This document shows positions 14,112 to 62,727 of a stretch of 64,000 bases of DNA, piece after piece; the stretch's first letter is position 1; each line of letters starts with the position of its first letter. Both the position numbers and the translations under genes were made by a program. The notes beneath the pieces are model-generated. The model did not search any database, was not told the DNA's origin, and worked only from the letters and a program-made list of their open reading frames with translations. The DNA comes from Bacteroidales bacterium (lineage in GTDB: Bacteria; Bacteroidota; Bacteroidia; Bacteroidales; UBA3824), in the NCBI GenBank assembly GCA_024401025.1, contig JAKSLV010000004.1, forward strand, positions 23 through 64,022, in the 5' to 3' direction.

Positions 14112-14190
14112 ATTGTATAGAGTTTTAAACAAATTTTCACAATTATAACTACAAACATTGCCTTATTATTGTCTAGGCCGCAATGTTTTT

Positions 14191-15117: not shown

Positions 15118-15229
15118 GCCGTGGACGCCGTTTTAATATGGCAGCGCAAATTTATCAAAAAAAACTGAAAATTTTATTTCGATTTATGAAAAACAAAAAT
15201 TAATTTTACGATTTGAAACTTTAATCACA

Positions 15230-16390
15230 ATGAGACAATACATTATATCGATTCTCCTGGCCTTGCAGGGATTGTGCGCAATGGCGCAAGACGACTCTAT
15301 CGCCCTGAGGATCAGCATACTTACCTGTGCGCAGGGCGACCAGATATACTCGGCCTTCGGACACTCGGCCATAAGGGTGAGGTGTCCCGAAAGAGGCTTC
15401 GACAGAGTGTACAACTACGGCACATTCGACTACACCCAGCCGCTTTTTGCGCTGAAATTTGCCCGCGGCTACCTCGACTATGCCCTCACGGTGTACAATT
15501 TCAGGCTGTTCAGCTACGAGTATCTCCGCGGAAAAAGGCAGGTATCAGAGCAAGACCTAAACCTGTCGCCTAGGCAGGCGCAGGCAATGTTCGCATATCT
15601 GGAATGGAACGCACTGGAGGAAAACAGATACTACCGCTACAATTTCCTCTACGACAACTGCGCCACCAAGATACGCGACATCCTGAAGAAGGCTTGCGGC
15701 CCCGACATACAGTTTCCCGAAAGCAACTACGACTTCACCCTTAGGCAGTCGATAAACAGCAAGATCTCCAACATGCCGTGGCTGAGGATGGGCGTATCGC
15801 TGCTGATGGGTTTGCCCGTAGATAAAAAAGCAACATCAGAAACCGCCATGTTCATGCCCGACTACGTGAGCGAGACCCTGAGCCACACCACATTGCAGCT
15901 AAACGGCGGCAGCGTGCCTCTGGTGGGACAGACACGCGTAGTGATAGACTATCCGCCGGTGGAAACCGCCGACTGGCTTACATACGTATCGCCAAGCCTG
16001 ATACTCTGGCTGATACTGGCAGCATGGGCACCGATTACATACCTGGAGATAAAGAAAAAAAGATACAGCGCCTGGGCCGACGCCACGATGATGTGCCTTA
16101 CCGGATTTCTGGGAATAGTGGTGGCCATGGCGTGGTTCATGTCGGAACACACGGTGTGCGCCTACAACCTCAACATCCTGTGGCTGTGGCCCGTGCACAT
16201 AGTGGCGGCATGGAAAACCAAGAGCACTGCCAAATTCTGGACCACATACTACAAGGCCGCGGCCATAACATGCGGAATATTCGCCATAGCGGGTCCGCTG
16301 ATGCCGCAGCAATACGACGTGGCATTCTACCCGATGCTGCTGATAATGACAATGCGATTTGCAAGAATAGGCTTCTGCCGCATAAAGTAA
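15230..16390 (+). CDS. DUF4105/Lnb-family membrane protein (candidate Bacteroidota lipoprotein N-acyltransferase)
   Basis: Periplasmic N-domain ILTCAQGDQIYSAFGHSAIRV...YNYGTFDY followed by several TM helices. Confidence 0.6.
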   Translation: MRQYIISILLALQGLCAMAQDDSIALRISILTCAQGDQIYSAFGHSAIRVRCPERGFDRVYNYGTFDYTQPLFALKFARGYLDYALTVYNFRLFSYEYLRGKRQVSEQDLNLSPRQAQAMFAYLEWNALEENRYYRYNFLYDNCATKIRDILKKACGPDIQFPESNYDFTLRQSINSKISNMPWLRMGVSLLMGLPVDKKATSETAMFMPDYVSETLSHTTLQLNGGSVPLVGQTRVVIDYPPVETADWLTYVSPSLILWLILAAWAPITYLEIKKKRYSAWADATMMCLTGFLGIVVAMAWFMSEHTVCAYNLNILWLWPVHIVAAWKTKSTAKFWTTYYKAAAITCGIFAIAGPLMPQQYDVAFYPMLLIMTMRFARIGFCRIK

Positions 16391-16419
16391 CCACCCCAAA
16401 AAACAACAGACACCACACC

Positions 16420-18333
16420 ATGACACTACACAAAATACTAGGGAAACTGATATTGCCCGCCGCAATGCTGATGCCTATGGCCGCATCGGCACAGGACATG
16501 CTGACCGTAAACCCCGAGTTCAAGAAGGTATCGAGCTTCGAGTTCAACAACGAGTGGCACTACCTTACATCCGAGATGTTCCTCTTCAACGGCACAAAGT
16601 TTCAGCCCCTCGTAAACGACCTGTATGCCAACGTGCCCAAAAAGAGCAAGACATCTCTGCCCAGCCCAGAGAACATCCTGATAACCGCCAAGATAGACGG
16701 CACAGCTCTCGGAAACCTCAGCTATCCGATATTCAACTTCAACATCAGCACGGGAAGCAACGGACAGCTGATGACCTACACCATGGACAGCTACGAGGCC
16801 ATAAGGATAATGGACAACCTGCCGCTATCATCGCTAAGCAACGGCAAGATAGACTGCAACATAAACGTGGACCTTATCACCAAGGACAAGCCAAACAAGA
16901 TATACGAGTTTGTGGCATCGCAGCTTGGACAGATATCCAACTGGACCACCACGCCGCTTACCGCCGCCAAAACCCTGGTGGGCGAGCTGGGCAACCTTAT
17001 CACCACCAAGACAAACAACAAGGAATACAAGTTTAATTCCACCATACGACTCTACGAGGAGGAGGACTTCAGCAAGAGGGTGGCCTCCATAAGCGTGTAC
17101 TCCTTTATCCCATCCAGGATCCACCAGGCCGACATCGATTCTTCGGCAATAGCCAAATACCTGAACACCAACGACAACCCCAAGCTGGACAGATCGAGAC
17201 TGAACACGCTGATACGCTGCGACAAGTATCCCTTCATGGTGATAGTGAACTACAAATCTAAATACGTGTCGGAGCCCGTAATTGGCGACGAAACCACATC
17301 CGAGACCGTGGACGCACGACTCTCAAAGGTGAAGAAGGCATACGAATCGGGCCTGCTGAGCTCCGACATCTACACTCAGGAGCTTAAGCTGGTGGAATAC
17401 CTCTACGCTTTCGTTACCCTGAAATCTAGCATCAACAACTACCTGCTCAACTACAAAAACAAGATTACCGACGATTTCAGGATGCAGTACACCCAGATAT
17501 ACGACAACTATCTGCACCTGAGGGGAATACTGAACACCCGCAAGATAGAGTTTGCCAAGAGCGCAATCTTCATCAACGAGTTTCTATCCACCTACAACAC
17601 CATACTCACCAACGCCGAGATGTATCTGGATGGCGACAACAACCTGCGCAACCTGAAAAACATAGCCAAGCTCATGACCGATCCCGACGCTGACGCCGCC
17701 AAGTTCGACGCCGAGCGCAACGAGAAAAACCTGGCGATACTCCACTCGGTGGAATTCCCCACCGACCATCCCGAATTCAACAACGTGGCCGACCTCATGG
17801 CAAAAATCAGCAAGCTGGAAAACGAGCAATACAAGAACGTATTCAGCAAAAAAGTAGACAAGCTGAAGCTGATGCAGCCAAGCGCCGAGGCCACCACTTT
17901 CTGCGAGAGCCTGAAGAACGAGATGAACACCACATACTGCCGCAGCTGCCGCGAAAACGTTAATTCGGCCATCAACGACTACCTGCAGCGCCTCGACAGC
18001 GAGAACCTACGCAATGCACAAAAGAGGCTCAGCAACACGATATCACAGGCCAAAGACCAGATATTCAACATATTGCAGAAAGAGAAAATCATCCGGAAAC
18101 ATTTCGAGCAGGATTATGGCGACACACTGCCCGACGATGTGGAGTACATACATGAGGATTTCGAAAAACTCCAAAACAACCGCGAAAAACTTCAGTCTGT
18201 AATCAAAAAAGACTATTCGGACCAAAATACTACACAACTCAACCTAATATCAGACAATATTGAATACGAGGCGCAAGATTTGGCAAAAATTTTGGATAAT
18301 ATTTGCAAGAAAATGCCCGAACTTTGCGAATAA
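16420..18333 (+). CDS. hypothetical secreted protein, 637 aa, helical/coiled-coil C-terminal half
   Basis: Signal peptide MTLHKILGKLILPAAMLMPMAASAQ at internal ATG 16420 (residue 133 of track ORF 16024..18333; the upstream part overlaps the preceding gene). I recognise no family. Confidence 0.6.
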   Translation: MTLHKILGKLILPAAMLMPMAASAQDMLTVNPEFKKVSSFEFNNEWHYLTSEMFLFNGTKFQPLVNDLYANVPKKSKTSLPSPENILITAKIDGTALGNLSYPIFNFNISTGSNGQLMTYTMDSYEAIRIMDNLPLSSLSNGKIDCNINVDLITKDKPNKIYEFVASQLGQISNWTTTPLTAAKTLVGELGNLITTKTNNKEYKFNSTIRLYEEEDFSKRVASISVYSFIPSRIHQADIDSSAIAKYLNTNDNPKLDRSRLNTLIRCDKYPFMVIVNYKSKYVSEPVIGDETTSETVDARLSKVKKAYESGLLSSDIYTQELKLVEYLYAFVTLKSSINNYLLNYKNKITDDFRMQYTQIYDNYLHLRGILNTRKIEFAKSAIFINEFLSTYNTILTNAEMYLDGDNNLRNLKNIAKLMTDPDADAAKFDAERNEKNLAILHSVEFPTDHPEFNNVADLMAKISKLENEQYKNVFSKKVDKLKLMQPSAEATTFCESLKNEMNTTYCRSCRENVNSAINDYLQRLDSENLRNAQKRLSNTISQAKDQIFNILQKEKIIRKHFEQDYGDTLPDDVEYIHEDFEKLQNNREKLQSVIKKDYSDQNTTQLNLISDNIEYEAQDLAKILDNICKKMPELCE

Positions 18334-18399
18334 AATTGCATTGCTACATAATAAACAGCAAAGTTTGTCCGTTTTCAAATTTGTACAATACACCCTACT

Positions 18400-19428
18400 A
18401 TGAGAAAGGCATTTATATATATACAAATAATAGTGGCTCTGGTGATGCTGAACCTTGCAAAAGCAAAGGCTCAGATTATCCAGTTCTCGCAATTCTACGC
18501 TGCACCGCTATTCCTGGCGCCATCATACGCCGGAGAGTGTTTCGGCAGCAGAATATCGCTAAACTACCGCAACCAATGGCCCGAGGTAGGAATGTTCAAC
18601 ACCTACGCACTGGCCTACGACCAGAACCTCTACAAGATAAACAGCGGCGTGGGCATGATGGTGCTCCGCGACGACGCCGGTGATGGCGACCTGGCCCTCA
18701 CCACTGTGGATATCTGCTACTCATGGTGGACACACGTAAACCAGCAATGGATTTTCCGTCCCGGAATAGGCCTAAAGTACAATCAGAGAAGCATCAATTT
18801 CCAGGACCTCATCTTCGGCGACATGATCGACGAGATGGGTAACATCACAAAGCACACAATAGAAAACCCACCACTCACCCACAAGCCATTCCTTGATATG
18901 CAGGTATCAGGACTTATGTATTCCGACAAATACTGGGGAGGCATCTCGGTGGACCACCTGCTGAGACCAAAGGCTTCGCTCTACGACGACAACAACTACC
19001 ATGAGGATATGAAACTCACCATCTTCGGTGGTGCCAAGATTTATGTGGGCGGCGCTTCCACAAGCCGCGGACGCAAGGACAAGGACGATCTTCAGAGCGT
19101 TTCGTTCACACTCCTCTACGATTTCTCTAAGCTTTCCGACAACCTCTACCTCGGCGCCTACTGGCACAAGGACCCATTCACTCTCGGAGCATGGATAAAG
19201 GGTATTCCTGTGGCAATACGCAAGGATTCCTACAGCAACATCGACGCCATGGTGGTGATGCTCGGATACAAGATCTTCGATTTCCACGTGGGCTACAGCT
19301 ACGATTTCACCATCGGTCACCTCCTGAGCTCTACCGGAGGCAGCCACGAGATTTCTATTCAATACGAATTCATGCCAAAGGCAAAGGGAAAGAAACGCCA
19401 CAGCGTAATTGCCTGTCCAAGACTCTAA
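18400..19428 (+). CDS. T9SS membrane protein, PorP/SprF family (second copy)
   Basis: Signal peptide, then KAQIIQFSQFYAAPLFLAPSYAGE signature. 342 aa. Confidence 0.75.
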   Translation: MRKAFIYIQIIVALVMLNLAKAKAQIIQFSQFYAAPLFLAPSYAGECFGSRISLNYRNQWPEVGMFNTYALAYDQNLYKINSGVGMMVLRDDAGDGDLALTTVDICYSWWTHVNQQWIFRPGIGLKYNQRSINFQDLIFGDMIDEMGNITKHTIENPPLTHKPFLDMQVSGLMYSDKYWGGISVDHLLRPKASLYDDNNYHEDMKLTIFGGAKIYVGGASTSRGRKDKDDLQSVSFTLLYDFSKLSDNLYLGAYWHKDPFTLGAWIKGIPVAIRKDSYSNIDAMVVMLGYKIFDFHVGYSYDFTIGHLLSSTGGSHEISIQYEFMPKAKGKKRHSVIACPRL

Positions 19429-34259: not shown

Positions 34260-34742
34260 ATGGAGAAACTTAACCTGCCCGACTTCCAGCTAAGCATCAG
34301 GCAAGACGGCACCCACACCTACATATTCGACATCATAAGGAAGAAATACCTTGTGCTTACTCCGGAGGAATGGGTGAGGCAGAATTTTGTGCACTACCTG
34401 GCCGAGTGTCTGGGGTATCCGCCATCGCTGATGATGACAGAGAACGGCATGAAGCTCTACAACACCCAGAAACGCAGCGACATAGTAATCTACAGCCGCA
34501 ACGCCAAGCCGCTGTGCGTGGTGGAATGCAAGGCCACCGACATCAGGATATCGCAGGAGACCTTCAACCAGGTGGCCAGATACAACATCAACTTCAGGGC
34601 CCCGGTGATAATGGTTACCAACGGCATCAGCCACTACAGCGCACGCTACCACATTGCCGAAAACCGCTACGAGTTTCTGCATGAGATACCCACATACCAA
34701 CAGATACTAGAATACGATGAAAACGATACAACAGATAAATAA
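34260..34742 (+). CDS. HsdR N-terminal (PD-(D/E)xK nuclease-like) domain protein
   Basis: EEWVRQNFVHYL...RSDIVIYSRNAKPLCVVECKA core. 160 aa. Confidence 0.7.
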   Translation: MEKLNLPDFQLSIRQDGTHTYIFDIIRKKYLVLTPEEWVRQNFVHYLAECLGYPPSLMMTENGMKLYNTQKRSDIVIYSRNAKPLCVVECKATDIRISQETFNQVARYNINFRAPVIMVTNGISHYSARYHIAENRYEFLHEIPTYQQILEYDENDTTDK

Positions 34743-36654
34743 CGAGCTCATGAAGCTGATGCCGCTGATAGAGGCCGAGCGCAAGGCCGAGATCGACGAG
34801 TATGCCGAGAAGGTGAACACCCAGCCCCTGTCGGAGCAGAGGAAGATGGGCTTCTGCCGCTATCCCCTAAGGGTGAGCAACCAGCTCTTCAACCGTGGCG
34901 AGCACCTCATGATTGTGCTTCAGCAGGAGGGCGGCCCCGACGACCTGCCCAAAAACACGGGCCTCTTCAAGTCCGGACAGACCATAAAGCTGTTCCAGAA
35001 AGACGGCGACCCCGAGGAGTGCGCCACCGGTGTAATCAACAACAGCGACAAGGACCAGCTTACCGTAACCCTGAACACCGACTGCATGAAAGACTGGATG
35101 CTGGGACGCGGGCTGTGCGCCCAGCTGGTGTTCGACCCCTCCACCTACCGCGAGATGGAGAAGGCCGTAAGCCGCATGGCCGAAACCACCGACCCCGACA
35201 TGATAAAGCTGAAGCTGGCACTATACGGCGGAGCCGCGCCCGAGTTTGTGGAAGACACACCTTTTATAAGTGACACCCGGCTAAACGCCAGCCAGAACGA
35301 GGCCCTGAGGCTGATAAACTCGGCTCAGGACGTGGCGGTGGTGCACGGACCTCCCGGCACGGGCAAAACCACAACCCTGGTAAGGGCCATAATAATGACC
35401 CTGAGAACCGAGAAACGAGTGCTGGTGTGCGCCCCGTCGAACGCCGCCGCCGACCTCATAACCGAGAAACTGGCCAACCTGTACATAAACGTGGTGCGCA
35501 TAGGACAGCCCGCCAGGATAGACGACGTGGTGCTATCCAACACCCTGGACTACAAGATAGCCGCCCACCCCAACTACAAGGACATCAAGAAGATGCGCCG
35601 CAAGGCCGACGAGTATCACCGCATGGCCGGCAAGTACAAGCGAAACTACACCGACAAGGAACGCCGCGAGAAACAGGAATACTACCGCGAGGCCAAGGCC
35701 CTGAGCGAGGAGGCCGACAATCTGGCCTACTACATCAGCAACGACATCGTAAGCAACGCCCAGGTGATAACATGCACCCTGGTGGGATCCACCTACAGGG
35801 AGATAAGCGACCTGATGTTCCGCACCGTATTCATCGACGAGGCGGCGCAGGCCCTGGAGCCGGCGTGCCTGATACCGATACTTAAGGGCGCAAGGGTGGT
35901 GTTTGCCGGCGACCACTGCCAGCTGCCGCCCACCGTGAAAACGCGCGAGGCCATCAGCGGCGGCCTCAGGAACACCCTGTTCGAGAAGGTGATAGCCAGG
36001 CCGGGTGTATCAGTGATGCTGAGCGAGCAATACAGGATGAACGAGATGATAATGCAGTTCAGCAACCAGCAGTTCTACAACTCGCAGCTTACGGCCAACG
36101 CGGCATGCGCCAAGGCCACCATCTTCGGCGGCGACAATGCCATGGAGTTCATCGACCTGGCCGGAATGGGTTTCAGCGAGAAAACCGAGCCCAAAACCAT
36201 GAGCACCTACAACGACGAGGAGGCCGAGATTCTGGTGCAGTATCTGAAAAGCTATCTGGAGATTGTGGAAGACCAGGGCAAGATGCACACGATATCAGGA
36301 ATAGGAATAATATCGCCATACAAGGCCCAGGCCGACACCATAGCCCGGCGCATGAAAAAATGCGGCATGCCCGACTACGTGAGGGCGCTTACGACGATAG
36401 ACACCGCCGACTCGTTCCAAGGCCGCGAGAAAGACATCATCGTAATCTCCATGACCCGGTGCAACCAGAAGGGCGAGATAGGATTCCTGAACGACCACCG
36501 GCGCATGAACGTGGCCATGACCCGTGCCAAGCGCAAGCTGATAATCTTCGGCGACAGCGCCACGATATCGCACTCCAAGTTTTATGAGGATTTCGTGAAG
36601 TTTTGCGAATACAACAACTGCTACAAATCGGCGTTCGAGATTATAGAATATTAG
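34717..36654 (+). CDS. SF1 helicase, DNA2/Upf1/IGHMBP2-like AAA domain protein
   Basis: Walker A GPPGTGKTTT, DEAAQ, GDHCQLPP, NVAMTRAKRKL. The ATG at 34717 overlaps the upstream gene by 26 nt. An alternative ATG lies at 34750. Confidence 0.85.
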   Translation: MKTIQQINNELMKLMPLIEAERKAEIDEYAEKVNTQPLSEQRKMGFCRYPLRVSNQLFNRGEHLMIVLQQEGGPDDLPKNTGLFKSGQTIKLFQKDGDPEECATGVINNSDKDQLTVTLNTDCMKDWMLGRGLCAQLVFDPSTYREMEKAVSRMAETTDPDMIKLKLALYGGAAPEFVEDTPFISDTRLNASQNEALRLINSAQDVAVVHGPPGTGKTTTLVRAIIMTLRTEKRVLVCAPSNAAADLITEKLANLYINVVRIGQPARIDDVVLSNTLDYKIAAHPNYKDIKKMRRKADEYHRMAGKYKRNYTDKERREKQEYYREAKALSEEADNLAYYISNDIVSNAQVITCTLVGSTYREISDLMFRTVFIDEAAQALEPACLIPILKGARVVFAGDHCQLPPTVKTREAISGGLRNTLFEKVIARPGVSVMLSEQYRMNEMIMQFSNQQFYNSQLTANAACAKATIFGGDNAMEFIDLAGMGFSEKTEPKTMSTYNDEEAEILVQYLKSYLEIVEDQGKMHTISGIGIISPYKAQADTIARRMKKCGMPDYVRALTTIDTADSFQGREKDIIVISMTRCNQKGEIGFLNDHRRMNVAMTRAKRKLIIFGDSATISHSKFYEDFVKFCEYNNCYKSAFEIIEY

Positions 36655-36750: not shown

Positions 36751-36758
36751 TATCTTTG
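36751..36758 (+). promoter_or_regulatory. candidate Bacteroidota -7 promoter box (TAnnTTTG)
   Basis: tatctttg matches TAnnTTTG, with a TTTG about 14 nt upstream. Lies about 150 nt before the zincin lipoprotein ATG. Confidence 0.3.
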
Positions 36759-36904: not shown

Positions 36905-38158
36905 ATGAAAAAAATCCTTACTTACGGATTGCTTGGACTTTTTGCAGTCATAAGCGGATGCTCGGGCTCTGGATCCGGCACATCTACCCAAAACTCTCCC
37001 AAGATTATCGACATGACTAAGACCAAGGGAAATGTCACCATGAAGAGAGTGTCCAAAAGATCCATTTCTAATGCCGACCTCAGGGAATTTACCCAAGGCG
37101 ACGAATCAGCTGACAATTTCGGCCAGGGAAACGACACACGAAACATAGGCTCGTGCAAGAAACTGGAAGGCAACATCTGTGTAATAAAACTCTTCATAGA
37201 GATTGCCGGCAGCCGCTGGACCACCGAAGACATCACCGCATACAACAACCGTATCCAGAAGGCCGAGAACTGGATTGTAAACCAGGCAAAACGCTTCAAC
37301 AAGGATGTACAATTCACCAACGTACAGCTCTACCAGAACAACCCATACAAGCTTGACGGAATGCCATCCGAGGAAGAATGGGAATACACAATGGTGGATA
37401 TCCTGAAAAACTCAGGCTACGACCATCCCAAAGACCTGGTGGCAAAGTGCAAGCAGCAGGGTTTCGACGGATGCCTGCTCATGATGATAAACAGCGGCGC
37501 AGGAAGGTCATGGTGCATGAACGTATCCAAATCGTACCTGAACGAGATGGAGATGACCTCTCCGCTTGAGTTCGTGAACCTCCACCGCCTGGACGACGGC
37601 GACATGAAGATGGAGCGCAGCGGAACCATAGCCCACGAGATTCTCCACACATTCGGTGCATGGGATATGTACGATGTTACCGACCAGGAAAACTCGCAAC
37701 TGGCCCAAGCCCTCAACAAGAACTTCCCAAATTCCATAATGCGCGATTCATACATGGACCTCAACCAGCTGGAGATCGACTGGGTGAACCAGTACATCGT
37801 GGGACTCACCGACGAGTACGATCCTGAGATTGCGCAGTGGGAACAGACCCGCGAGAACGGTACCGAGACCATGGACTACGACGACGAGTACATGGAGTAC
37901 GACGACTACGACTACTACAGCGAGGACGAGTACTACGACTACGACTACGACGACTGGGGCGACGGCTACAACGAGGACGACTATTACGACGACGACGAAT
38001 ACTACGACGACGATGACTATTACGACGATGATGACGACGACTATTACGACGACGACGAGTATTACGACGATGATGAATACTACGACGATGACGACGACTA
38101 TTACGACGACGGAAACAGCTGCAATAGCCGCAGCCGCCGCGGCGGACACCGCCGATAG
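36905..38158 (+). CDS. lipoprotein with zincin (HExxH) metalloprotease motif and extreme Asp/Tyr-rich C-terminal tail
   Basis: Lipobox MKKILTYGLLGLFAVISGC at ATG 36905 (residue 44 of the track ORF). HEILHTFGAWDMYD. The last ~95 aa are D/Y/E low complexity and end SRSRRGGHRR. Confidence 0.65.
   Translation: MKKILTYGLLGLFAVISGCSGSGSGTSTQNSPKIIDMTKTKGNVTMKRVSKRSISNADLREFTQGDESADNFGQGNDTRNIGSCKKLEGNICVIKLFIEIAGSRWTTEDITAYNNRIQKAENWIVNQAKRFNKDVQFTNVQLYQNNPYKLDGMPSEEEWEYTMVDILKNSGYDHPKDLVAKCKQQGFDGCLLMMINSGAGRSWCMNVSKSYLNEMEMTSPLEFVNLHRLDDGDMKMERSGTIAHEILHTFGAWDMYDVTDQENSQLAQALNKNFPNSIMRDSYMDLNQLEIDWVNQYIVGLTDEYDPEIAQWEQTRENGTETMDYDDEYMEYDDYDYYSEDEYYDYDYDDWGDGYNEDDYYDDDEYYDDDDYYDDDDDDYYDDDEYYDDDEYYDDDDDYYDDGNSCNSRSRRGGHRR
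37871..38110 (+). repeat. coding low-complexity repeat (GAC/TAC-rich) encoding the 80-aa Asp/Tyr/Glu tail
   Basis: MDYDDEYMEYDDYDYYSEDEYYDYDYDDWGDGYNEDDYYDDDEYYDDDDYYDDDDDDYYDDDEYYDDDEYYDDDDDYYDD. By hand count this is about 40 D, 25 Y and 8 E out of 80. Confidence 0.9.
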
Positions 38159-38228
38159 ATACCTGCTAGCCAACAAAATACAATATACTTGATAATTGAT
38201 TTATAAACCATAACTAACAACCCAGAAT

Positions 38229-40223
38229 ATGAAAAACAAATTCTTAATTTCAGCATTGGGTATGGCCATGTGGGCAGGCAGCTCCATGGCGCAGATAAAT
38301 ACCTATGATGCGTTTCCTGTTCCGGAGGGTTTCAAGGCAATATCCGCCAACATCTCTGGCAATGGCCAGCTTGCCATTGTGGGAGTTCAGGACAAGAGCG
38401 GTACTGTAAAATACCTCCAGTTTCAGAAAACCGGCAGCCAGTTTTCACCATCCACGGCGGCCAACCCTCTCAACGACCTTATCGGCCAGAGCATCGTGCC
38501 GATGAATCCATCGCAGAGCAACGACGGCAGCGTGATCTATTTTGCTGCCGACAATGGCGGCAACACCGACCTCTACATGATAGAGAAGGTAAACGGCAAG
38601 TGGGGCAAGCAGAAGTCGCTGGGCGACAGCATCAACACATCGGGCAACGAGCAGTATCCGGCCATATCGCCCGACGGCAACACAATATACTTCACCAGGA
38701 TAAACCAGGGTGCTGCCGACCCCAGATGCGGAACACTGTACATAAGCAACCACAAGGCCGACGGATCGTGGAGCACCGCCAAGGATGCTCCAGAGCCTGT
38801 TACCCTGGGCTGCGAGGCCGCTCCATACGTTTGCCCCGACGGCAAAACCATCTACTTCTCGTCGATAAGAGAGGGCGGCAAGGGCGGTTTCGATGTGTAT
38901 TACACCAAGCGTGCTGATGCCAAGTCGTGGGTAATTCCTATTCCGATAGACACACTAAACACCAAGGAGAACGAGATGTCGCCAACATACGACTACGCCT
39001 CCAAGCAGATGTATCTCGTAAGCCGCAATCAGAAGAAGAGCGACGCCGCCAACAAGGCCGACATCGCCAGCGGTTTCCAGCATGAGCCTGTAACCAGATT
39101 CTTCGGCAAAACCACCGACAAGGCCACCAAGAAGCCTCTGGGCACCAGCATAGAGGTAAAGGACGCCTTCAGCTCGATGGTGTTGGCCACCTACAAGAGC
39201 GACGACATCACTGGTCAGTACGATTTCTTCCACAATGGCAACACATCGATCTTCATCGACTACAGCCATCCCGGATACTCGCACGCCATAGTGGAGACCG
39301 TGCCCAACAAGCAGGAGAACAAGACCGACTATCAGCTGTTCGACAAGGTGGACCTCCAGCTTAATGTGTTTGACTCCGAGATGTTTGAGGCCCTGAGCTC
39401 CAACATCGACATCAAAGCCGACGGCAAGCCCGAGAACGTGAAGATGGACGAGTTTAGCAAGGGCCGCTACAAGATGACCCTCGCCATCGGCAAGAACTAC
39501 GATTTCAACGTAAGCAAGGACCTCTACAACGACTACAAGTTCAACCTGAACCTGTCGCAGGTGGTAATCTTCGATTCGTTTGAGCGCGACGCCGAGCTTG
39601 TTTCCAACAAGAGCAAGGTGGATTTCATTGTTGAGGGTCTCGAGTCAGGCATGACAGCCGACATCGACATCGTGGACCTCTCTACAGCCACCAAGTATTC
39701 CACCACCATCACCACCGACGGCGAGGGCAAGGCATCCATAAGCCTGCGCAAGAACGACAAGTATCAGTTCACCATCATAAAGAAGGGCTACTCGATGTTC
39801 CAGAAAACCGAGGTGGTAAACACTCCAGAGCACACCGTAAGGGCATCCATAACCAAGCTTCAGGAAAACGTGAAGATAGAGATTCCAAACGTGAACTTTG
39901 CCACAGCAAGCGCAGTATTGGATCCATCGTCTTACGAATCGCTCAACTCTGTGGTATCGCTCCTGAAGATGAACTCCGACATCAAGATAGAGCTGTCGGC
40001 CCACACCGACAACGTGGGACAGAAGGCCTACAACCTGAAGCTCTCCGACCAGAGAGCAGCATCAGTGGCCGCATACCTTATAAACAAGGGTATCGGCAAG
40101 AGCAGAATCGTATCCAAGGGATACGGCATGGACGTGCCTATTGCTGACAACAAGACCGAGGAGGGCCGCGCCAAAAACCGCCGCGTGGAGCTGAAAATTT
40201 TAGGAACTGTAACCAACCACTAA
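38229..40223 (+). CDS. PorE-like outer-membrane protein: TolB-type beta-propeller + carboxypeptidase-regulatory-like domain + OmpA_C peptidoglycan-binding domain
   Basis: PD40 repeats (YPAISPDGNTIYFT, APYVCPDGKTIYFSS). CRD-like FGKTTDKATKKPLGTSIEVKD. OmpA_C NVNFATASAVL...LSAHTDNVG...NLKLSDQRAASVAAYL...NRRVELKIL. Confidence 0.7.
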   Translation: MKNKFLISALGMAMWAGSSMAQINTYDAFPVPEGFKAISANISGNGQLAIVGVQDKSGTVKYLQFQKTGSQFSPSTAANPLNDLIGQSIVPMNPSQSNDGSVIYFAADNGGNTDLYMIEKVNGKWGKQKSLGDSINTSGNEQYPAISPDGNTIYFTRINQGAADPRCGTLYISNHKADGSWSTAKDAPEPVTLGCEAAPYVCPDGKTIYFSSIREGGKGGFDVYYTKRADAKSWVIPIPIDTLNTKENEMSPTYDYASKQMYLVSRNQKKSDAANKADIASGFQHEPVTRFFGKTTDKATKKPLGTSIEVKDAFSSMVLATYKSDDITGQYDFFHNGNTSIFIDYSHPGYSHAIVETVPNKQENKTDYQLFDKVDLQLNVFDSEMFEALSSNIDIKADGKPENVKMDEFSKGRYKMTLAIGKNYDFNVSKDLYNDYKFNLNLSQVVIFDSFERDAELVSNKSKVDFIVEGLESGMTADIDIVDLSTATKYSTTITTDGEGKASISLRKNDKYQFTIIKKGYSMFQKTEVVNTPEHTVRASITKLQENVKIEIPNVNFATASAVLDPSSYESLNSVVSLLKMNSDIKIELSAHTDNVGQKAYNLKLSDQRAASVAAYLINKGIGKSRIVSKGYGMDVPIADNKTEEGRAKNRRVELKILGTVTNH

Positions 40224-40236
40224 AATCAATACCGAC

Positions 40237-42429
40237 ATGAAGAAGATTTTATTACTTTTATTGGCCGGCGCAGTTTGCTCCAGCTCTCTTGCGCAGCGTC
40301 AGGTAAAATACAAAGACATATACGCCAAGATCGGCAAGGAGCCTGCCGAGCACTCGCTCCTGAAGCTGAACGAGTATCAGAAGATAGCTCCAGAGTTTGC
40401 CAACACATACGTGCAGACCGGCCTGATACAGTGGAGCTGGCTTCAGAACGAGGACCCATACCTCAACTACGAGTATGTGCAGACCCTGATATACAACGCC
40501 AAGCTGTATCTGGGCATGGCCATCAACAAGATCCAGAAGGACGACAAGGAGGTGAAGAAAAACAAGGCTTTCTACACCAACCTGGGCCTGGGCACCAATG
40601 CCGACGAGCTTAAGCAGGAGGAGGTTTTGGCCGAGCTCAACAGACTGCTGAGCGTGGTGAAGGAATACGAGGAGAATGTCACCAAGATAATCTCCAACTT
40701 CAACAAGACCATCGAGAAGTACAACGAGTGCATAAGCATCTACAACGGCATCGTGGGCCGTCAGAGCAACTACAAGCACCTGCTGCTTACAAGCAGCAAG
40801 GACCTCCGCGACGAGATGGAGATGCTCTCGCAGAAGTACGACAGCGCCAATGTTTACTTCAAGCAGTTTAAGAGCGCGCAAAACGCCTACAGGAAGTACA
40901 AGCTGGCCAACTACAACCAGCAGACCAAGACCACTCCCATCGTTACCTACCGTCTGGAGGGCCTTACTTCCAGCAACTTCATAAATCCCGAGATTCCTAT
41001 CTGGGACTATCAGAAATGGGTAAAGGAGGCTTTTGCCGAGATGGATGGCAACATCGCCATGCTTAAGAAGGGCACCGACAAGGAGATAAAGAACCTCCGC
41101 TACAGAATCGACAAGCTTCAGAAATCCAAGGCCGAGACCGACAGCATCCAGGAGATTGTGGCTCCCAACAAGCTGGTGAACCTGGTGGAGAAATACGACT
41201 ACGAGTCGCTCCTATCGGCCAGCCTTAAGTACGAGGCAGCCCTGGCCAACCTGAAGATAGCCTCCATGAGATCGGCCAACAATGTGGAGAATGCCGAATC
41301 GTTCAGCGAGGACTACTTCCAGAAGGCCAACTTCTACTACGACCTCTACCTCATGAGCCAGGAGGCCAAGAACACTCTGGCAGTGCAGGCTGCTCGCATC
41401 ACCGACAACAACCTGAACATGCATGAGGAAATCATCAACAGCCTCTACGGCGGCAAGAGCCAGATGCAGAACGGATACAAGGAGAAGCAGGCATCAGAGA
41501 TCGACAACATCATGGAGAAAAACCTGATGAACTTTAAGCTCTACACCATAAACGCCCTCTACCCCGACAATCTGGTGATAGAAAACGGCGGCGCCAGCAT
41601 CAACGCCCGCCCATACAGCGGATCGTTCGACCAGGCTTCCGACGGCTCGTACATCACCCTTAGCACCGTGAAGGACAATTCGGGCAACAGATACATCTGC
41701 GGCTACAAGAAAACCGGCGCCAACGCAGCCAACGGTTTCATAGCCAAGGTGGACACCGAGAACAATCTGATATGGCTGAAGGACATAAACGCAGCACAGG
41801 GCGGCATCAACAAGGTGGTTCAGATACTGCCATCCAACTCGTCTGACTTTGTGGCCGTGGCCGTAAACATAAACCAGGGCGCATGCAAGACCGTGGCCAT
41901 GAAGATGAACACCCAGGGCGCTCAGACCGCCAAGGCCGAGATGAAGTCGACCCTCCACCCAACCATGGGCTGCTACAACGAGATAGAGGACAAGGTGAGC
42001 ATAGCCTTCAAGGGCATGAGCGGCAACGAGAGCACATCCAGCAACGACGACGCCTCTGTGGAATCGGCCATTTTCGGTCAGGCTGATGCTTACACCAGCC
42101 CATCGTTCAAGCTTAAGGGCACCATCGCCGACATCGTGCCAGCCGGCAACGGCTACATGGTGATCTGCAACTACACCGACATCAACGCCGGCGGCAAGAG
42201 CCTGCAATCCGCATCCAACGTGGCCGCAGTACGTGTGGATGGCCAGAACATCAAGGCTGATGCTCTGGAGGCCGGCAAGGACGCCAAGGCATTCCGTGCA
42301 TTCCAGGTAAACGCCGAAACCATCAGCGTGATAGGTGCTTACGACAAGATAGACGCAGAGATATCGGCCAGTCAGAAGCCTGCCTTCATGACAATTTCGG
42401 CCGATGGCAAGTTTACTTACCACAACTAA
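40237..42429 (+). CDS. hypothetical secreted protein, 730 aa (helical N-terminal half, beta-rich C-terminal half)
   Basis: Signal peptide MKKILLLLLAGAVCSSSLAQ. Starts 13 nt after the PorE-like gene. I recognise no family. Confidence 0.6.
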   Translation: MKKILLLLLAGAVCSSSLAQRQVKYKDIYAKIGKEPAEHSLLKLNEYQKIAPEFANTYVQTGLIQWSWLQNEDPYLNYEYVQTLIYNAKLYLGMAINKIQKDDKEVKKNKAFYTNLGLGTNADELKQEEVLAELNRLLSVVKEYEENVTKIISNFNKTIEKYNECISIYNGIVGRQSNYKHLLLTSSKDLRDEMEMLSQKYDSANVYFKQFKSAQNAYRKYKLANYNQQTKTTPIVTYRLEGLTSSNFINPEIPIWDYQKWVKEAFAEMDGNIAMLKKGTDKEIKNLRYRIDKLQKSKAETDSIQEIVAPNKLVNLVEKYDYESLLSASLKYEAALANLKIASMRSANNVENAESFSEDYFQKANFYYDLYLMSQEAKNTLAVQAARITDNNLNMHEEIINSLYGGKSQMQNGYKEKQASEIDNIMEKNLMNFKLYTINALYPDNLVIENGGASINARPYSGSFDQASDGSYITLSTVKDNSGNRYICGYKKTGANAANGFIAKVDTENNLIWLKDINAAQGGINKVVQILPSNSSDFVAVAVNINQGACKTVAMKMNTQGAQTAKAEMKSTLHPTMGCYNEIEDKVSIAFKGMSGNESTSSNDDASVESAIFGQADAYTSPSFKLKGTIADIVPAGNGYMVICNYTDINAGGKSLQSASNVAAVRVDGQNIKADALEAGKDAKAFRAFQVNAETISVIGAYDKIDAEISASQKPAFMTISADGKFTYHN

Positions 42430-42557: not shown

Positions 42558-42565
42558 TATTTTTG
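42558..42565 (+). promoter_or_regulatory. candidate -7 promoter box (TAnnTTTG)
   Basis: tatttttg, 69 nt upstream of the sensor-phosphatase ATG, in an AT-rich spacer. Confidence 0.35.
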
Positions 42566-42633: not shown

Positions 42634-45600
42634 ATGAAACATATACGCATATTACTGATTATCATTATATTGGCATTAGGCTGCGACACATTTGCCCAGC
42701 TTAACAGGGCAGGTACGCCCTATATGAGACGGCTGAAAGTGACAGAGCAGGGCGGCAACAAGCAAACCATGGACGTGGCTGCCGACAAAAATGGAGTAAT
42801 GTATTTTGCCAACACCAGCGGCGGAGTACTGATATATGACGGCACAAACTGGAACTCGGTAAAGCACTCATGGTCGATACACTCGCTATGCATCGATGAT
42901 GAGACCAACAACGTATACGTGGGTGCCGACAATGATTTCGGCGTGCTGAAAACCAATGCCAACTACCAATACGAGGTGCTCTCATACAAGGACAAAATCG
43001 ACGAGCAGTATCAGAACATCGACAGAATATTCAACATACTATGCTCCAAGAAGGAGGGCACGGTGTTCCAGTGCACCAAGTACATCTTTGCAATAAAGAA
43101 CGACAGCATAAAAGTAATATCCGACCCCACCAGCATAAACGCCGGATTCAACAGCATATACAAGTGCGGCGAGAGGATTTTTGCCGTGCACGAAACCAAT
43201 GGAATAAAGGAGGTGGTGGATGGCGAGCTCAAAAACCTTCCAGAGCTGGCTGAAACTGGCAGCAAGATAAAATACATCGGACAAAACGACAACGGCGCAA
43301 TCATAATAATAAACCTAAACAAGGGCATCATGGAATTCGCCAACAACGAGCTGAGCTTTATCGACAGCCCGTTCAACGAGTATATCAGAAAATACTCCAG
43401 CAACATCGAGCGAATCCTGCGTACACACGACGGCAACTTTGTATTTGCCATACGCTCTGTGGGTCTGGTGATTACCGATTGCAACTTCAACATAATAAAA
43501 GAGATGCGCCTGCAGGGCATCAACTCCATCAATCGACTCTACGAGGACCACAACCACCTTCTGTGGATATGCTCCAACGAGGACGTGGTGCTGATAGACC
43601 TGTTCTCGCCATATTCCACCTATTACTACAACGAGACCGGAATACACGGCAGCCTAAAGTCGATACTCAGATACGGCAAAAACATCTATCTGGGTGCTGA
43701 TGCCGTATATCAGACCGACAGCATAGAGAATGCAACATTCAAGGAGCTAAAGAGCAACAAAGGCTACACCGCCATGTGGAGCCTCGACACCATAAACGGC
43801 AGAATATTCGGCGGATCCAACAAGGGACTCTTCACCATAGACTCGCTGAACAATTTCATCAACATAGACGCCGTAGACAAAGACAGGAACGTATTCAAGT
43901 TCAAGATTCCTAATGACAACCCCAACGTGCTGATAGGCATCGGATTGTATGGAATCTCAACATATCAGAAAACCGGCGACAAATGGAATTATAAAGTGGG
44001 CGCCGATGTAGGCCCCGACAATTTCCAGAAAAAATCGCGCTACATAGAGGCCGATGACGACGGATACTACTGGGTATCGCACAAGGACTACGGATTGTAC
44101 CGCCTGAAACTGAACGCCACTTACGACACCGTACTGAGCGCCGAGTTTTTCGACCAAAGCAAGGGCCTGCCTTCTGATGCCGACAACTACGTGTTCAGGG
44201 CCGACAAGGGCATAGTGTTTGCCACCACCGATGGCATATACAAATACGACCGAGAGTCGGGCATGATGGTGGAGGACATCAGGATGAACACCATCTTCGG
44301 CGGCAAGAAGAGATTCGACCTCATATACTACGACCAGAACGGAAGCATCTGGGTGAAACATGTAGTAAAAAAGGCCAAGAGCAACGACAACGAGTGGTAT
44401 CTTGAGCAATACATACTTACAAGCGACAGCACCGCCGAGTGCATTTCCAACCAGTACAATGTATTCAAGGACAACATATACGCATTTGGCTCGGTTGGCG
44501 ATGGCAAATACGTGATTGGAAGCGGCGACAGGTTCACACTCTACAACAGCAACATATCCAAGGATTTCTTTGCCCCATACAAGGCCATAATCCGCAAGAT
44601 GGAAAACATCGGAACCGACTCGCTAATATACGGCGGCAACTACACCGACTCGGAAAGCCTGAATATAGAGCTGCCGTTTGCAATGTCGTATTCGTCGCGA
44701 AGCATAAGAATAACATTCGCATCAGCCTTCTACGAATACCCTGAGGCTTGCAAGTTCAACACATATCTGGAGAATGCCGACGAGGACTGGACCGGATACC
44801 GCGGCGAGAACTTCAAGGAATACGTAAACCTGTGGCCGGGCACCTACACCATGCACGTGAAGGCCCGCAACATATACGGCGTGGAGAGCGAGGAGGCCAC
44901 CCTCACATTCAAGATACTGCCACCGTGGTATCTCACCAAGCTGGCCATAGTGATATACGTAATCCTGTTTGGATTGCTGATATGGCTTATAATAGTAATG
45001 TACACACAGAAGCTTATCCGCGACAAGCAGAATCTTGAGAAGATAGTGGAGGAGCGCACAGCCGAGATACGCAAGCAGAGCCAGCTGATCATGGAGCAGA
45101 ACAAGTCGATAACCGACTCCATCAACTACGCCAAGCACATACAGAGGGCCATGCTGCCGCTCGACGAGAAGATAGCAGCCGTGTTGCCAAACCACTTTAT
45201 ACTGTTCCGACCCAAGGACATAGTATCAGGCGACTATTACTGGTTTGCCGAAACCGACAAGTACATACTGATAACCGCCGCCGACTGCACAGGCCACGGC
45301 GTTCCGGGCGCTTTCATGAGCATGATAGGTTCGCAGATACTCACCGAGATTGTGGGAGAGGGAATCACATCGCCCGACCTGATACTCACCAACCAGAACC
45401 GCCGCATCAGGAAAGCCCTGAAGCAGGACACCACCGAAAACCACGACGGCATGGACATGGCACTCTGCACCATCAACAAGGAGACTCACGTGGTGGAGTT
45501 TGCCGGTGCCAAAAACCAGCTGGTGGTGATAAAGAACGGCGAGCTTACCGAATACAAGGCCGACAAGCAGGGTATCGGAGGCACACAGCTCTACGGCGAC

Positions 45601-45861
45601 GACTTCCAGTACAAGAAGACCTCCATAGAACCCGACGGCAACACTTGGTTCTACATGTTCTCCGACGGATACAAGGACCAGTTTGGAGGCCCCGACAACA
45701 GCAAGTTCCTCATAAAGAGACTGCGACAGCTGCTGCTCGATATCCACGAGAAGAGCCCCGAGGAGCAGCGCAAGATCCTGGACGACACCATCCAAGACTG
45801 GATAGACAAAGGCAAGGGCGAACAAACCGACGACATAATACTGATGGGATTTAAGCTGTAA
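42634..45861 (+). CDS. periplasmic beta-propeller/Y_Y_Y sensor fused to a cytoplasmic PP2C (SpoIIE-type) phosphatase
   Basis: Signal/TM, two-component-regulator propeller-like repeats, Y_Y_Y LENADEDWTGYRGENFKEYVNLWPGTYTMHVKARN, TM LAIVIYVILFGLLIWLIIVMY, coiled coil. PP2C motifs INYAKHIQRAMLP, SGDYYWF, ADCTGHGVPGAFMS, FSDGYKDQFGG, DDIILMGFKL. Confidence 0.8.
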   Translation: MKHIRILLIIIILALGCDTFAQLNRAGTPYMRRLKVTEQGGNKQTMDVAADKNGVMYFANTSGGVLIYDGTNWNSVKHSWSIHSLCIDDETNNVYVGADNDFGVLKTNANYQYEVLSYKDKIDEQYQNIDRIFNILCSKKEGTVFQCTKYIFAIKNDSIKVISDPTSINAGFNSIYKCGERIFAVHETNGIKEVVDGELKNLPELAETGSKIKYIGQNDNGAIIIINLNKGIMEFANNELSFIDSPFNEYIRKYSSNIERILRTHDGNFVFAIRSVGLVITDCNFNIIKEMRLQGINSINRLYEDHNHLLWICSNEDVVLIDLFSPYSTYYYNETGIHGSLKSILRYGKNIYLGADAVYQTDSIENATFKELKSNKGYTAMWSLDTINGRIFGGSNKGLFTIDSLNNFINIDAVDKDRNVFKFKIPNDNPNVLIGIGLYGISTYQKTGDKWNYKVGADVGPDNFQKKSRYIEADDDGYYWVSHKDYGLYRLKLNATYDTVLSAEFFDQSKGLPSDADNYVFRADKGIVFATTDGIYKYDRESGMMVEDIRMNTIFGGKKRFDLIYYDQNGSIWVKHVVKKAKSNDNEWYLEQYILTSDSTAECISNQYNVFKDNIYAFGSVGDGKYVIGSGDRFTLYNSNISKDFFAPYKAIIRKMENIGTDSLIYGGNYTDSESLNIELPFAMSYSSRSIRITFASAFYEYPEACKFNTYLENADEDWTGYRGENFKEYVNLWPGTYTMHVKARNIYGVESEEATLTFKILPPWYLTKLAIVIYVILFGLLIWLIIVMYTQKLIRDKQNLEKIVEERTAEIRKQSQLIMEQNKSITDSINYAKHIQRAMLPLDEKIAAVLPNHFILFRPKDIVSGDYYWFAETDKYILITAADCTGHGVPGAFMSMIGSQILTEIVGEGITSPDLILTNQNRRIRKALKQDTTENHDGMDMALCTINKETHVVEFAGAKNQLVVIKNGELTEYKADKQGIGGTQLYGDDFQYKKTSIEPDGNTWFYMFSDGYKDQFGGPDNSKFLIKRLRQLLLDIHEKSPEEQRKILDDTIQDWIDKGKGEQTDDIILMGFKL

Positions 45862-58512: not shown

Positions 58513-58998
58513 ATGACAGAGGAAACCGCTAAAACACTAAGCAAACTGATGGTACTATGCTCGCGCGCGGAGAAATGCGAGAGCGAGGCATACAAATACA
58601 TGACAACCAGGGGCGCCACCAACGAGGAAGCCTTCGAGGCTGTGGAATATCTTACGGCAAACCAATACGTGGACAACGAGAGATATGCCAGAAGCTACGT
58701 GGCCGACAAGGCCAGATTCAACAAATGGGGCAAGGACAAGATTGTGATGCAGCTGAGGATAAAACAGATACCTGACTCGGTGATAAACGGGGCCATTGAG
58801 GAAATTTTTGACCCCGAACTGGAAAAAAACACAATTTCGACCGAACTGGCAAAAAAATTGCGGGGACTAAAAGACGACGAGCCCCGCGCCAAGGCATGGG
58901 AGAAGCTGATGCGTTTTGCCGCCGGACGCGGATACCCGGCCGCCACATGCGGCCCAATAATTACAAAGATGTTGAACGACAGGCAAAACAACAACTAG
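58513..58998 (+). CDS. recX: RecX-family regulatory protein
   Basis: Three-helix repeat pattern: LMVLCSRAEKCESEAYKYM, YLTANQYVDNERYARSYVADKARFNKWGKDKIVMQLRIKQI. 161 aa. Confidence 0.65.
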   Translation: MTEETAKTLSKLMVLCSRAEKCESEAYKYMTTRGATNEEAFEAVEYLTANQYVDNERYARSYVADKARFNKWGKDKIVMQLRIKQIPDSVINGAIEEIFDPELEKNTISTELAKKLRGLKDDEPRAKAWEKLMRFAAGRGYPAATCGPIITKMLNDRQNNN

Positions 58999-59003
58999 CA
59001 ACC

Positions 59004-59723: not shown

Positions 59724-59767
59724 AAAAACAACGACATTAATAGATCTATTAAAAAACATATTGACAC

Positions 59768-60544: not shown

Positions 60545-60590
60545 TAGAAAAAAAAGAAAGAACAGAAAAACCCATTCTCCCAAAGAGGCC

Positions 60591-62726: not shown

Positions 62727-62727
62727 T

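Follow-up and report, generated by a model that had tools for sequence, protein, structure and literature searches.

A length-variable aspartate/tyrosine tail on a predicted metzincin lipoprotein of uncultured gut Bacteroidales

Why does a predicted bacterial peptidase end in 80 residues composed mostly of aspartate and tyrosine, and is that end real, maintained and of use to the enzyme? The question is raised by a 417-residue predicted lipoprotein encoded in a 64,000-nucleotide stretch of a Bacteroidales genome assembly (GCA_024401025.1, contig JAKSLV010000004.1; the whole stretch analysed is referred to as the window), in which a zinc-peptidase-like domain is followed by the low-complexity tail. 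The analysis described here showed that the tail is genuine and no artefact of assembly, that it fits no described domain and can be viewed as a disordered, acidic extension of a secreted enzyme whose catalytic family is new within a known clan, and that it is limited to a few uncultured gut Bacteroidales. To our knowledge, few bacterial envelope proteins carry disordered tails of extreme composition, and a role is known for almost none of these tails. The coordinates of all features are collected in Table 1.

A genuine tail with a selected reading frame

The open reading frame (ORF) starts with MKKILTYGLLGLFAVISGC and ends with GNSCNSRSRRGGHRR directly before the stop codon, and the identical 417-aa product was also called by NCBI (GCA_024500545.1) and is present in a Logan contig. 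Residues 323-402 (37871..38110) comprise 40 D, 25 Y, 8 E, 2 M, 2 G, 1 S, 1 W and 1 N, with a net charge of -48, and are followed by a 15-residue Cys/Arg-rich end with a net charge of +5. The Shannon entropy of the tail is 1.86 bits compared with 4.20 for the catalytic domain and, given the residue frequencies of that domain, the binomial probability of at least 40 D in 80 residues is 4e-24 and that of at least 25 Y is 1e-15. Each of the 25 tyrosines lies within two residues of a D or E. At the DNA level the tail is an imperfect triplet repeat (Tandem Repeats Finder, TRF: period 3, 71 copies, 68% matches; period 18, 11.7 copies) with a GC content of 0.50, the same as the gene and the window, and a poly-Thr ORF (37830..38192, + strand) and a poly-Val/Ile ORF (37748..38176, - strand) are other-frame shadows of this repeat. 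As there is no K or R inside it, the tail is contained in a single tryptic peptide of ~91 residues, so that missing peptides in trypsin-based proteomics would be uninformative.

A preliminary description of the locus had given the same D, Y and E counts and the same 80-residue span, both of which were exact to the residue, and its account of a GAC/TAC micro-repeat reading as poly-Val/Ile and poly-Thr in other frames was confirmed by TRF and the ORF list. Its statement that the tail resembles no characterised domain was borne out by Pfam, NCBIfam and literature searches: no Pfam or NCBIfam family matched the tail, and no RHS/teneurin YD-repeat Pfam model matched the protein at E <= 0.1. Targeted literature searches for Asp/Tyr-rich segments returned only dysprosium metallurgy and teneurin YD repeats (the phrase 'tyrosine and aspartate-rich' denotes teneurin/RHS YD repeats) and no Asp/Tyr low-complexity domain. 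In a protein-database search with the tail alone, 0 of 1,588 word candidates passed and the known orthologue was also lost, which is attributed to the HMMER composition correction and makes the search uninformative on how frequent such tails are elsewhere. C-terminal sorting signals (LPXTG, GlyGly-CTERM and the C-terminal beta-sandwich domain, CTD, of the type IX secretion system, T9SS) were considered and rejected, there being no hydrophobic segment and no family match; an SVAGG GlyGly-CTERM match (E 0.022) falls on the zinc-motif region, outside the tail.

In order to compare tail lengths, assembled contigs of gut, faeces and horse metagenome runs were used, and the differences are therefore between samples. 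In run X1 (L034), a 9,815-nt contig of depth 14.6 was identical to the window over the whole gene, and in run X2 a 3.4-kb contig crossed the gene with 26 substitutions and an additional 30 nt. Elsewhere the tail differed by +27 nt (X4) and -12 nt (X9), with a possible 81-nt duplication in X6. Homologous in-frame tails were also found in two related species, L001 (87% identity in the catalytic domain) and P0001/L032 (76%), and strain variants of the latter tail differed by -34 and +1 residues (-102 and +3 nt). Every observed tail indel was a multiple of three, and the frame and the terminal motif were always kept. The earlier expectation that orthologues would carry the tail at varying length was thus realised in three species and several strains.

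The preliminary description had also allowed for an assembly or collapse artefact, or a hidden frameshift with the true stop upstream of the repeat. Some short-read assemblies do break in the repeat (the X3 and X4 contigs stop inside it), and a depth spike of 10- to 60-fold is seen at 37992-38065 in gut metagenome assemblies; the spike can be attributed to unrelated GAY-rich short contigs that cross-map to this interval, and collapse is not implied. Against an artefact stand the identical independent contig from X1, the second full-length contig that spans the tail with an in-frame insertion, and the three species and several strains that keep the frame open to a homologous end, and this explanation is effectively refuted. 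Separately, poly-Asp/Glu-coding sequence of other origin was found to be abundant in these gut samples. In a metatranscriptome run, fragments identical to parts of the catalytic region and of the gene that follows were present, the tail lying outside the coverage.

The tail is divided into a proximal block, a distal repeat and a terminal motif. The proximal block (~43 residues) reads MDYDDEYMEYDDYDYYSEDEYYDYDYDDWGDGYNEDDYYDD, and the distal repeat is mostly replaced by GYDDYGDGYDDY-type units in P0001. The terminal motif is GNSCNSRSRRGG in the window, YGNCNNRGRGGYY or YGNCNNRGRGG in L001, and GG[SN]CNGG(G)R, four times over, in P0001/L032, so that a related G-x-(S)-C-N...R end is shared by all species and strain variants. 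The codons of the tail all belong to the N-[A/G]-C type, namely GAC and TAC together with their one-step neighbours GGC, AAC, AGC, TGC and CGC, and because of this uniformity the whole appendage looks derived from one cryptic triplet repeat.

In-frame indels are not evidence of selection here, because slippage of a 3-nt unit yields multiples of three in any case. The count of stop codons was therefore compared with its neutral expectation. A single substitution can create a stop in 64 ways in the window tail, mostly by TAC/TAT to TAA/TAG (54-79 such routes per tail across species), and 4.8-9.5 nonsense hits are expected under neutrality on the path between the window and L001 at the synonymous divergence of the catalytic domain (dS 0.45-0.66 in these comparisons), with more on the L032 paths. 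None was seen (P 2e-6 to 9e-3, depending on the transition bias; <= 0.009 for L001 and lower for L032). In addition, Tyr stays at 22-27% in the three species although Tyr codons are the riskiest for stops, the D+E and Y fractions being 0.51/0.26, 0.50/0.27 and 0.25/0.22, respectively. The absence of the expected stops, together with the homologous ends, shows that the reading frame and the terminal motif are under selection, and the acidic and Tyr-rich composition is kept while length and exact sequence turn over.

Catalytic domain and predicted location

The domain that precedes the tail was modelled with AlphaFold2 on a 101-row alignment, which replaced a model on a 4-row alignment with a predicted local distance difference test score (pLDDT) of 55, and a pLDDT of 92.7 and a predicted template modelling score of 0.92 were obtained. 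In that alignment H244, E245, H248, G251, A252, D254, Y256 and M279 are each kept in 97-100 of 101 sequences, giving an almost invariant family signature HExxHxxGAxDxY...M (in longer form GSAxxLxG...HExLHxFGAWDLY...IM) in which Asp is the predicted third zinc ligand and M279 sits 25 residues past D254. An extended HEXXHXXGXXD motif with an Asp third zinc ligand and a downstream Met has been described in snapalysin-type enzymes (PMC3890501).

Foldseek comparison of the model with the PDB gave profragilysin-3/BFT (7poq, E 3.6e-5), adamalysin II (2aig), ADAM8 (4dd8), ADAMTS-5 (6yjm) and snake-venom metalloproteinases as best matches, and the top 50 PDB fold matches were fragilysin, adamalysin, ADAM and ADAMTS structures with a probability of 0.9-1.0 and TM-scores of ~0.4-0.46 (~0.44 for the best matches). 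Sequence-level searches were far less productive. In Pfam, Reprolysin_5 scored below its cutoff (14.1 bits vs 27) and was touched by 6 of the 101 family members at E <= 0.01, Reprolysin_3/4/5 being the only models touched by the family; no meaningful NCBIfam match to the catalytic domain was obtained, and profile searches of PDB sequences returned no metallopeptidase chain and hence no sequence-level relative of a solved structure. An exhaustive profile search recovered 1,649 family cluster representatives (50% identity) at E <= 1e-3, 129 of them at E <= 1e-30, the taxa being metagenome-assembled genomes (MAGs) of Bacteroidales, Clostridia/Oscillospiraceae, Spirochaetes, Myxococcota and Cytophagales (P0005-P0152). 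A word-indexed protein search found three relatives only, and a close-relative scan of JGI metagenome contigs found a single distant tailless homologue. Most family members are 240-290 aa long with the domain reaching the C-terminus, and they usually carry 10-40 residues (10-60 at most) between signal peptide and domain, with no N-terminal prodomain.

On the model, the extended motif HExxHxxGxx(H/D) and the fold place the domain in the metzincin clan MA(M), as a member of an undescribed family with its fold nearest fragilysin and the adamalysins and with predicted peptidase activity. The lipoprotein with a zincin domain that had been described before is confirmed and, by motif, fold and conservation, refined to an Asp-variant metzincin. 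Membership of the described families was not supported: the domain falls short of the Reprolysin_5 Pfam cutoff for M12B, it has no sequence similarity to snapalysin (M7) beyond the short motif, and the ~190-residue N-terminal prodomain of a fragilysin-type zymogen is absent, only a ~60-residue disordered linker being found in its place. A disulfide between the tail Cys and the clade-specific Cys84 was considered and rejected: Cys84 is found in 8 of 101 members, some of which have no tail, and the strain variants do not agree in Cys parity.

At the N-terminus, the lipobox (MKKILTYGLLGLFAVISG before the Cys) fits [LVI][ASTVI][GAS]C, and ALSG precedes the Cys in both orthologues. Surface-exposed Bacteroides lipoproteins that are sorted to outer-membrane vesicles (OMVs) are marked by a lipoprotein export signal (LES), CS(D/E)2-3 or K-(D/E)2 (PMC6222051). 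From the lipidated Cys onwards, the sequences read CSGSGSGTSTQ in the window, CSGSGSGTDSP in L001 and CSGSTTPPQGK in P0001, and an acidic export signal is missing from all three. By this rule the protein would face the periplasm. It is probably an outer-membrane lipoprotein with this orientation, as read from its N-terminal sequence by a rule taken from Bacteroides and Capnocytophaga that may not transfer to the present host. No T9SS CTD was found among the Pfam and NCBIfam matches, the C-terminus being low-complexity.

Possible roles of the tail

The tail is a disordered-looking polyanion with a short basic Cys/Arg end, which may have originated as an N-[A/G]-C triplet repeat and been resized by in-frame slippage or unequal recombination. 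At ~0.6 negative charges per residue, divalent cations (Ca2+, Mg2+, Zn2+) would condense on such a chain, an expectation that we infer from its charge density. Loaded with cations, it could form an electrostatically stiff, extended leash that would hold the terminal Cys/Arg motif off the acidic catalytic domain (net charge -16, in a protein with an isoelectric point, pI, of 4.1) and off anionic membrane surfaces, and might in this way position or regulate the peptidase in the envelope. A sister clade of Paludibacteraceae MAGs at 33% identity (L002 7986-9260; L026 7950-9242; P0002, P0004 cluster) has a length-variable Glu/Tyr/Cys-rich acidic linker at the position of the tail, followed by an extra C-terminal domain of ~110 residues; these proteins apparently lack a signal peptide, with an in-frame stop just upstream of the start. 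The acidic stretch would correspond by position to their Glu-rich linker. On the basis of charge density and of this linker position, the explanation tentatively favoured over the others is a cation-loaded, extended leash by which the terminal motif would be displayed and the enzyme positioned or regulated, with confidence that remains on the low side.

Several observations weigh against this explanation. No Ca2+-binding family (EF-hand, TSP3/dockerin DxDxDG, RTX) was matched in Pfam or NCBIfam at E <= 0.1, and the nearest Ca2+-motif-like string, DYDYDDWGDGYNEDD, misfits EF-hand and DxDxDG spacing on inspection. In the 76% orthologue half of the acidity is swapped for Gly/Asn, and a strong polyanionic character is therefore not strictly required. 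The dN/dS of the proximal block, which at 0.05 against L001 (0.083 for the catalytic domain) speaks for selection, rises to 0.7-0.9 against L032, in a test that is weak because it draws on ~15 synonymous sites. About 1,650 family clusters are without any tail, so the tail is dispensable for catalysis or folding. Neither operon neighbour is basic (pI 6.2 and 6.6), the L032 orthologue is followed by an unrelated lipoprotein-like ORF after a 460-nt repeat-rich spacer, and the export-signal rule behind the periplasmic orientation comes from other genera. An electrostatic fold-back onto a basic catalytic domain or a basic operon partner was considered separately and rejected, given the net charge of the domain and the pI values of the neighbours.

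Metzincin latency offers a possible, though unlikely, alternative, in which the tail would be a C-terminal autoinhibitory pro-segment. Adamalysins/ADAMs and matrix metalloproteinases (MMPs) use a cysteine-switch. In the present protein the carboxylate of a tail Asp (aspartate-switch) or the thiolate of the terminal Cys (cysteine-switch) would cap the zinc, with a neighbouring Tyr in the S1' pocket, and latency would end on cleavage or displacement of the tail, for instance when Ca2+ is loaded. The closest structural relative, profragilysin-3, owes its latency to Asp194, which is part of a linker that passes through the cleft in the reverse direction (PMC9514063). Such a role would agree with the lack of an N-terminal prodomain in the family, with the Cys flanked by small residues that is kept at every tail end (four-fold in P0001), and with the selection for read-through to this Cys, and many redundant D-Y units would tolerate changes in length. 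However, nearly all family members have neither tail nor prodomain, so that latency conferred by a tail is no family trait; docking of a chain with a charge of -48 is disfavoured by the acidic catalytic domain; and known metzincin pro-segments are N-terminal. A more specific form, a length-plastic C-terminal switch with multiple copies of the aspartate/cysteine element that is released by divalent-cation loading, such that Ca2+/Mg2+ would gate activity and slippage would tune the threshold between strains, is regarded as rather improbable.

Expansion of a (GAC)n-type repeat at the gene's 3' end may instead have left a tail that is tolerated as a functionless by-product, its composition reflecting mutation and slippage. 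Every tail codon is one step from GAC/TAC, length changes rapidly between strains by indels that are automatically in frame with a 3-nt unit, and TAT-TAC pairs recur within the repeat unit, so that part of the synonymous variety was copied and not accumulated; the proximal dN/dS near 1 against L032 and the tailless majority of the family point the same way. These points are opposed by the complete lack of nonsense mutations despite the many one-step routes in each tail, by the homologous terminal motif in all species and strains, by a proximal block that is gap-free across three species and by the steady Tyr content in spite of its risky codons, and a mere by-product is accordingly thought rather unlikely.

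The composition of the tail resembles that of Asp-rich mineral-binding and cation-binding proteins, and the polyanion might serve as an adhesive or mineral-binding module, at the surface or on OMVs, that captures cationic ligands of host or dietary origin (antimicrobial peptides, calcium phosphate or oxalate particles), so that the protease would be fed or anchored. Lipoproteins enriched in Bacteroides OMVs have an acidic mean pI of 4.86 (PMC6222051), the present protein is likewise acidic, and the organism lives in animal guts, as judged from the matching gut, faeces and horse metagenomes. Neither an LES in any of the three orthologues nor a T9SS CTD was found, and the surface tether suggested in the preliminary description, like surface or host-directed roles in general, is weakened by the absence of CS(D/E)2-3 (CSGSGSG... 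is present instead); such a module is considered quite unlikely.

Acidic flanks are the classical context of tyrosine sulfation, and the acidic residues that flank every Tyr would suit a substrate for O-sulfation, phosphorylation or oxidative dityrosine cross-linking into a matrix, the last of which has been proposed for spore-coat proteins rich in Tyr. A parallel exists with the Tyr-rich CotC and CotU, which assemble into high-mass forms, dityrosine links being known from spore coats (PMC7944565). No sulfotransferase, tyrosine kinase, radical-SAM enzyme or peroxidase gene was found in the 64-kb window (52 ORFs) or beside the orthologues, which is weak negative evidence, the neighbourhood is not conserved at 76% identity, and peroxide-driven cross-linking is unlikely in a strict-anaerobe lineage; Tyr modification, which had been among the first suggestions, is thus held to be very unlikely. 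Formylglycine modification of the tail Cys by the formylglycine-generating enzyme (FGE) was also considered and rejected, as the motif is CNSRSR/CNGGGR and not CxPxR and the sole FGE-sulfatase-domain gene lies 24 kb off, beside PorP/SprF.

Finally, the earlier proposal of a contingency locus, in which repeat slippage would switch the gene or the downstream operon on and off, takes support from the length polymorphism of the tract between samples and species but is highly improbable, since all differences are multiples of three (+30, +27, -12, +81?, -102, +3 nt), with frame and terminal motif kept, and since a frameshift at the 3' end would leave the catalytic domain intact; tail length would be tuned and expression not switched.

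What can be measured at this locus is selection on an extreme tail, in the form of an open frame, a conserved terminal motif and a kept Tyr content. Should the tail prove to have a regulatory or metal-binding role, triplet-repeat slippage that tunes an enzyme appendage would have a simple natural example here, and an Asp/Cys-switch, if true, would be a zymogen architecture new to a well-studied protease clan. Whatever the tail does, a catalytic family of ~1,650 clusters with no Pfam model merits a model and a name.

Genomic setting and comparison with known systems

Upstream of the gene a match to the Bacteroidota-type -7 promoter box was found, a pattern that occurs only slightly more often in the window than expected (40 matches against 28); the next intergenic box on the + strand is at 42558. 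The 70-nt gap between the zincin gene and the following PD40-OmpA gene contains neither a -7 box nor a terminator-like hairpin. With a box at 36751, none until 42558 and no terminator, the genes for the zincin, the PD40/OmpA_C protein and the 730-aa protein could form one transcription unit. The order of the three genes is kept in L001, and 0 of 30 more distant family loci share these neighbours. In the L032 locus, the spacer (~1375-1830) contains a 55-60 nt unit in ~7 tandem-like copies (AAAAAAAGCACATTTTTTCATTTTTCTGGC.GGGGA.AG.GC.AGAA). The operon with a PorE-like protein that had been described earlier stands in the window and in the 87% relative, and does not in the 76% orthologue; moreover, the neighbour is far under the cutoffs of PorE (NCBIfam NF052230, 174.3 bits vs 600) and of CHU_0125 (186 vs 620). 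Its OmpA_C domain is of the typical peptidoglycan-binding type and matches the PorE domain 6top (1.3e-16). An Rfam scan of 34-43 kb returned no RNA family.

Other genes of the window were noted in passing. Immediately upstream of the zincin gene (34260-36654), an HSDR_N_2-domain protein and a superfamily 1 (SF1) helicase (AAA_11/AAA_12, SMUBP-2-like 1B domain) are encoded by ORFs that overlap by 26 nt, the HSDR_N-like ORF being 327 aa in L001 vs 160 aa in the window. Directly after the three genes, and syntenic in L001, lies a gene (42634-45861) for a large sensor protein with a Reg_prop/Y_Y_Y (two-component regulator) propeller and a C-terminal SpoIIE/PP2C phosphatase. T9SS/gliding-type genes are located at 12576-19428, and a chemotaxis-like cluster at 58896-63213 encodes a HisKA_3 kinase, a double-receiver response regulator, CheA (Hpt, H-kinase_dim, HATPase_c and CheW domains) and CheW.

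Table 1 Features of the tailed metzincin gene and of the window (window positions)
Feature	Position	Strand	Basis or remark
Complete coding sequence, predicted lipoprotein metzincin with D/Y tail	36905..38158	+	Stop codon included; ORF call, translation
Signal peptide and lipobox (..AVISG before C19)	36905..36961	+	Read from sequence; ALSGC in orthologues
Low-complexity linker, residues 20-80, CSGSGSGTST start	36962..37144	+	pLDDT ~30 in 4-row-alignment model
Catalytic domain, residues 81-322, predicted member of an uncharacterised metzincin family	37145..37870	+	Model, fold and profile searches
Predicted zinc-binding motif HEILHTFGAWD (H244, E245, H248, G251, D254)	37634..37666	+	Each residue in 98-99 of 101 family members
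Met279, candidate Met-turn methionine	37739..37741	+	Met in 100 of 101 family members, I/V before
Proximal tail half, sequence-conserved (MDYDDEYMEYDDYDYYSEDEYYDYDYDDWGDGYNEDDYYDD..)	37871..37999	+	Gap-free alignment, three species
Distal length-variable D/Y(E) repeat, units YYDDDE, YYDDDD, YYDDDDDD	38000..38110	+	In-frame indels; TRF
Terminal Cys/Arg-rich motif GNSCNSRSRRGGHRR, net +5	38111..38155	+	Homologous ends in relatives
Bacteroidota-type -7 promoter box TATCTTTG	36751..36758	+	Pattern match upstream of gene; suggestive
Secreted 664-aa PD40 beta-propeller + CarboxypepD_reg + OmpA_C protein (PorE-like architecture, not PorE)	38229..40223	+	Pfam/NCBIfam/PDB
Third gene, 730-aa secreted protein, no match in Pfam, NCBIfam or PDB sequences	40237..42429	+	82% identical, syntenic in L001
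FGE-sulfatase-domain protein, GldJ/PorK-like	12576-14111	-	
PorP/SprF gene	14191-15117	-	
PorP/SprF gene	18400-19428	+	
769-aa ORF, no Pfam match, flanked by T9SS/gliding-type genes	16024-18333	+	

Among known systems, the predicted catalytic domain is most like fragilysin (BFT) and the adamalysin/ADAM/reprolysin enzymes (MEROPS M10C/M12B), with which it shares the fold, the HExxHxxGxx[H/D] motif and a downstream Met. It differs in that the predicted third zinc ligand is Asp where theirs is His, in having no N-terminal prodomain, disintegrin or Cys-rich domain, and in modest TM-scores, and none of these enzymes is known to end in a low-complexity tail of D and Y. Snapalysin (M7) and other HEXXHXXGXXD zincins have the same extended motif with an Asp third ligand and a Met after it (PMC3890501); however, snapalysin is a minimal Streptomyces enzyme of ~130 residues, no sequence match to 1kuh was obtained, and the Met lies 25 residues past the Asp in the present family compared with ~10 in snapalysin. 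In the metzincin Asp- and Cys-switches, an Asp of a flexible segment (D194 in profragilysin) or a Cys caps the zinc, and candidates for such a cap in the tail are its 40 Asp and its single conserved Cys; the known switches are N-terminal and sequence-specific, whereas the candidate here is C-terminal, low-complexity and length-variable. For the downstream neighbour, the PD40 + CarboxypepD_reg + OmpA_C architecture is shared with PorE of the T9SS, and other T9SS-type genes (PorP/SprF x2) are present in the window, but no tetratricopeptide repeat (TPR) region was detected in it and its score is far below the cutoff.

For the tail itself, the nearest characterised bacterial proteins by composition are the tyrosine-rich CotC and CotU of Bacillus subtilis (PMC7944565). 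Unlike the tail, these small stand-alone coat proteins of a Firmicute spore are Lys-rich and not polyanionic, and the likeness is one of composition only. CotC and CotU are dominated by Tyr, Asp and Lys. The SD repeats of the staphylococcal Clf/Sdr proteins are an acidic dipeptide tract encoded by an imperfect repeat with an 18-nt period, with in-frame length variation between strains. They are alike in being an acidic low-complexity tract with that period and with strain variation in length, but they form a stalk between a ligand-binding domain and a wall anchor, whereas the present protein is anchored at its N-terminus and its tract forms the free C-terminal end, with Tyr instead of Ser and in a Gram-negative host. 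The calsequestrin tail and Aspein/Asprich-type proteins are Asp-dense disordered chains that bind divalent cations by charge; those proteins are eukaryotic, without regular Tyr pairs, and none is known to be joined to a peptidase. Taken as functional analogies only, SD-repeat stalks, acidic Ca2+-binding tails, CotC/CotU and switch pro-segments appear to be the systems nearest to the tail of this predicted metzincin.

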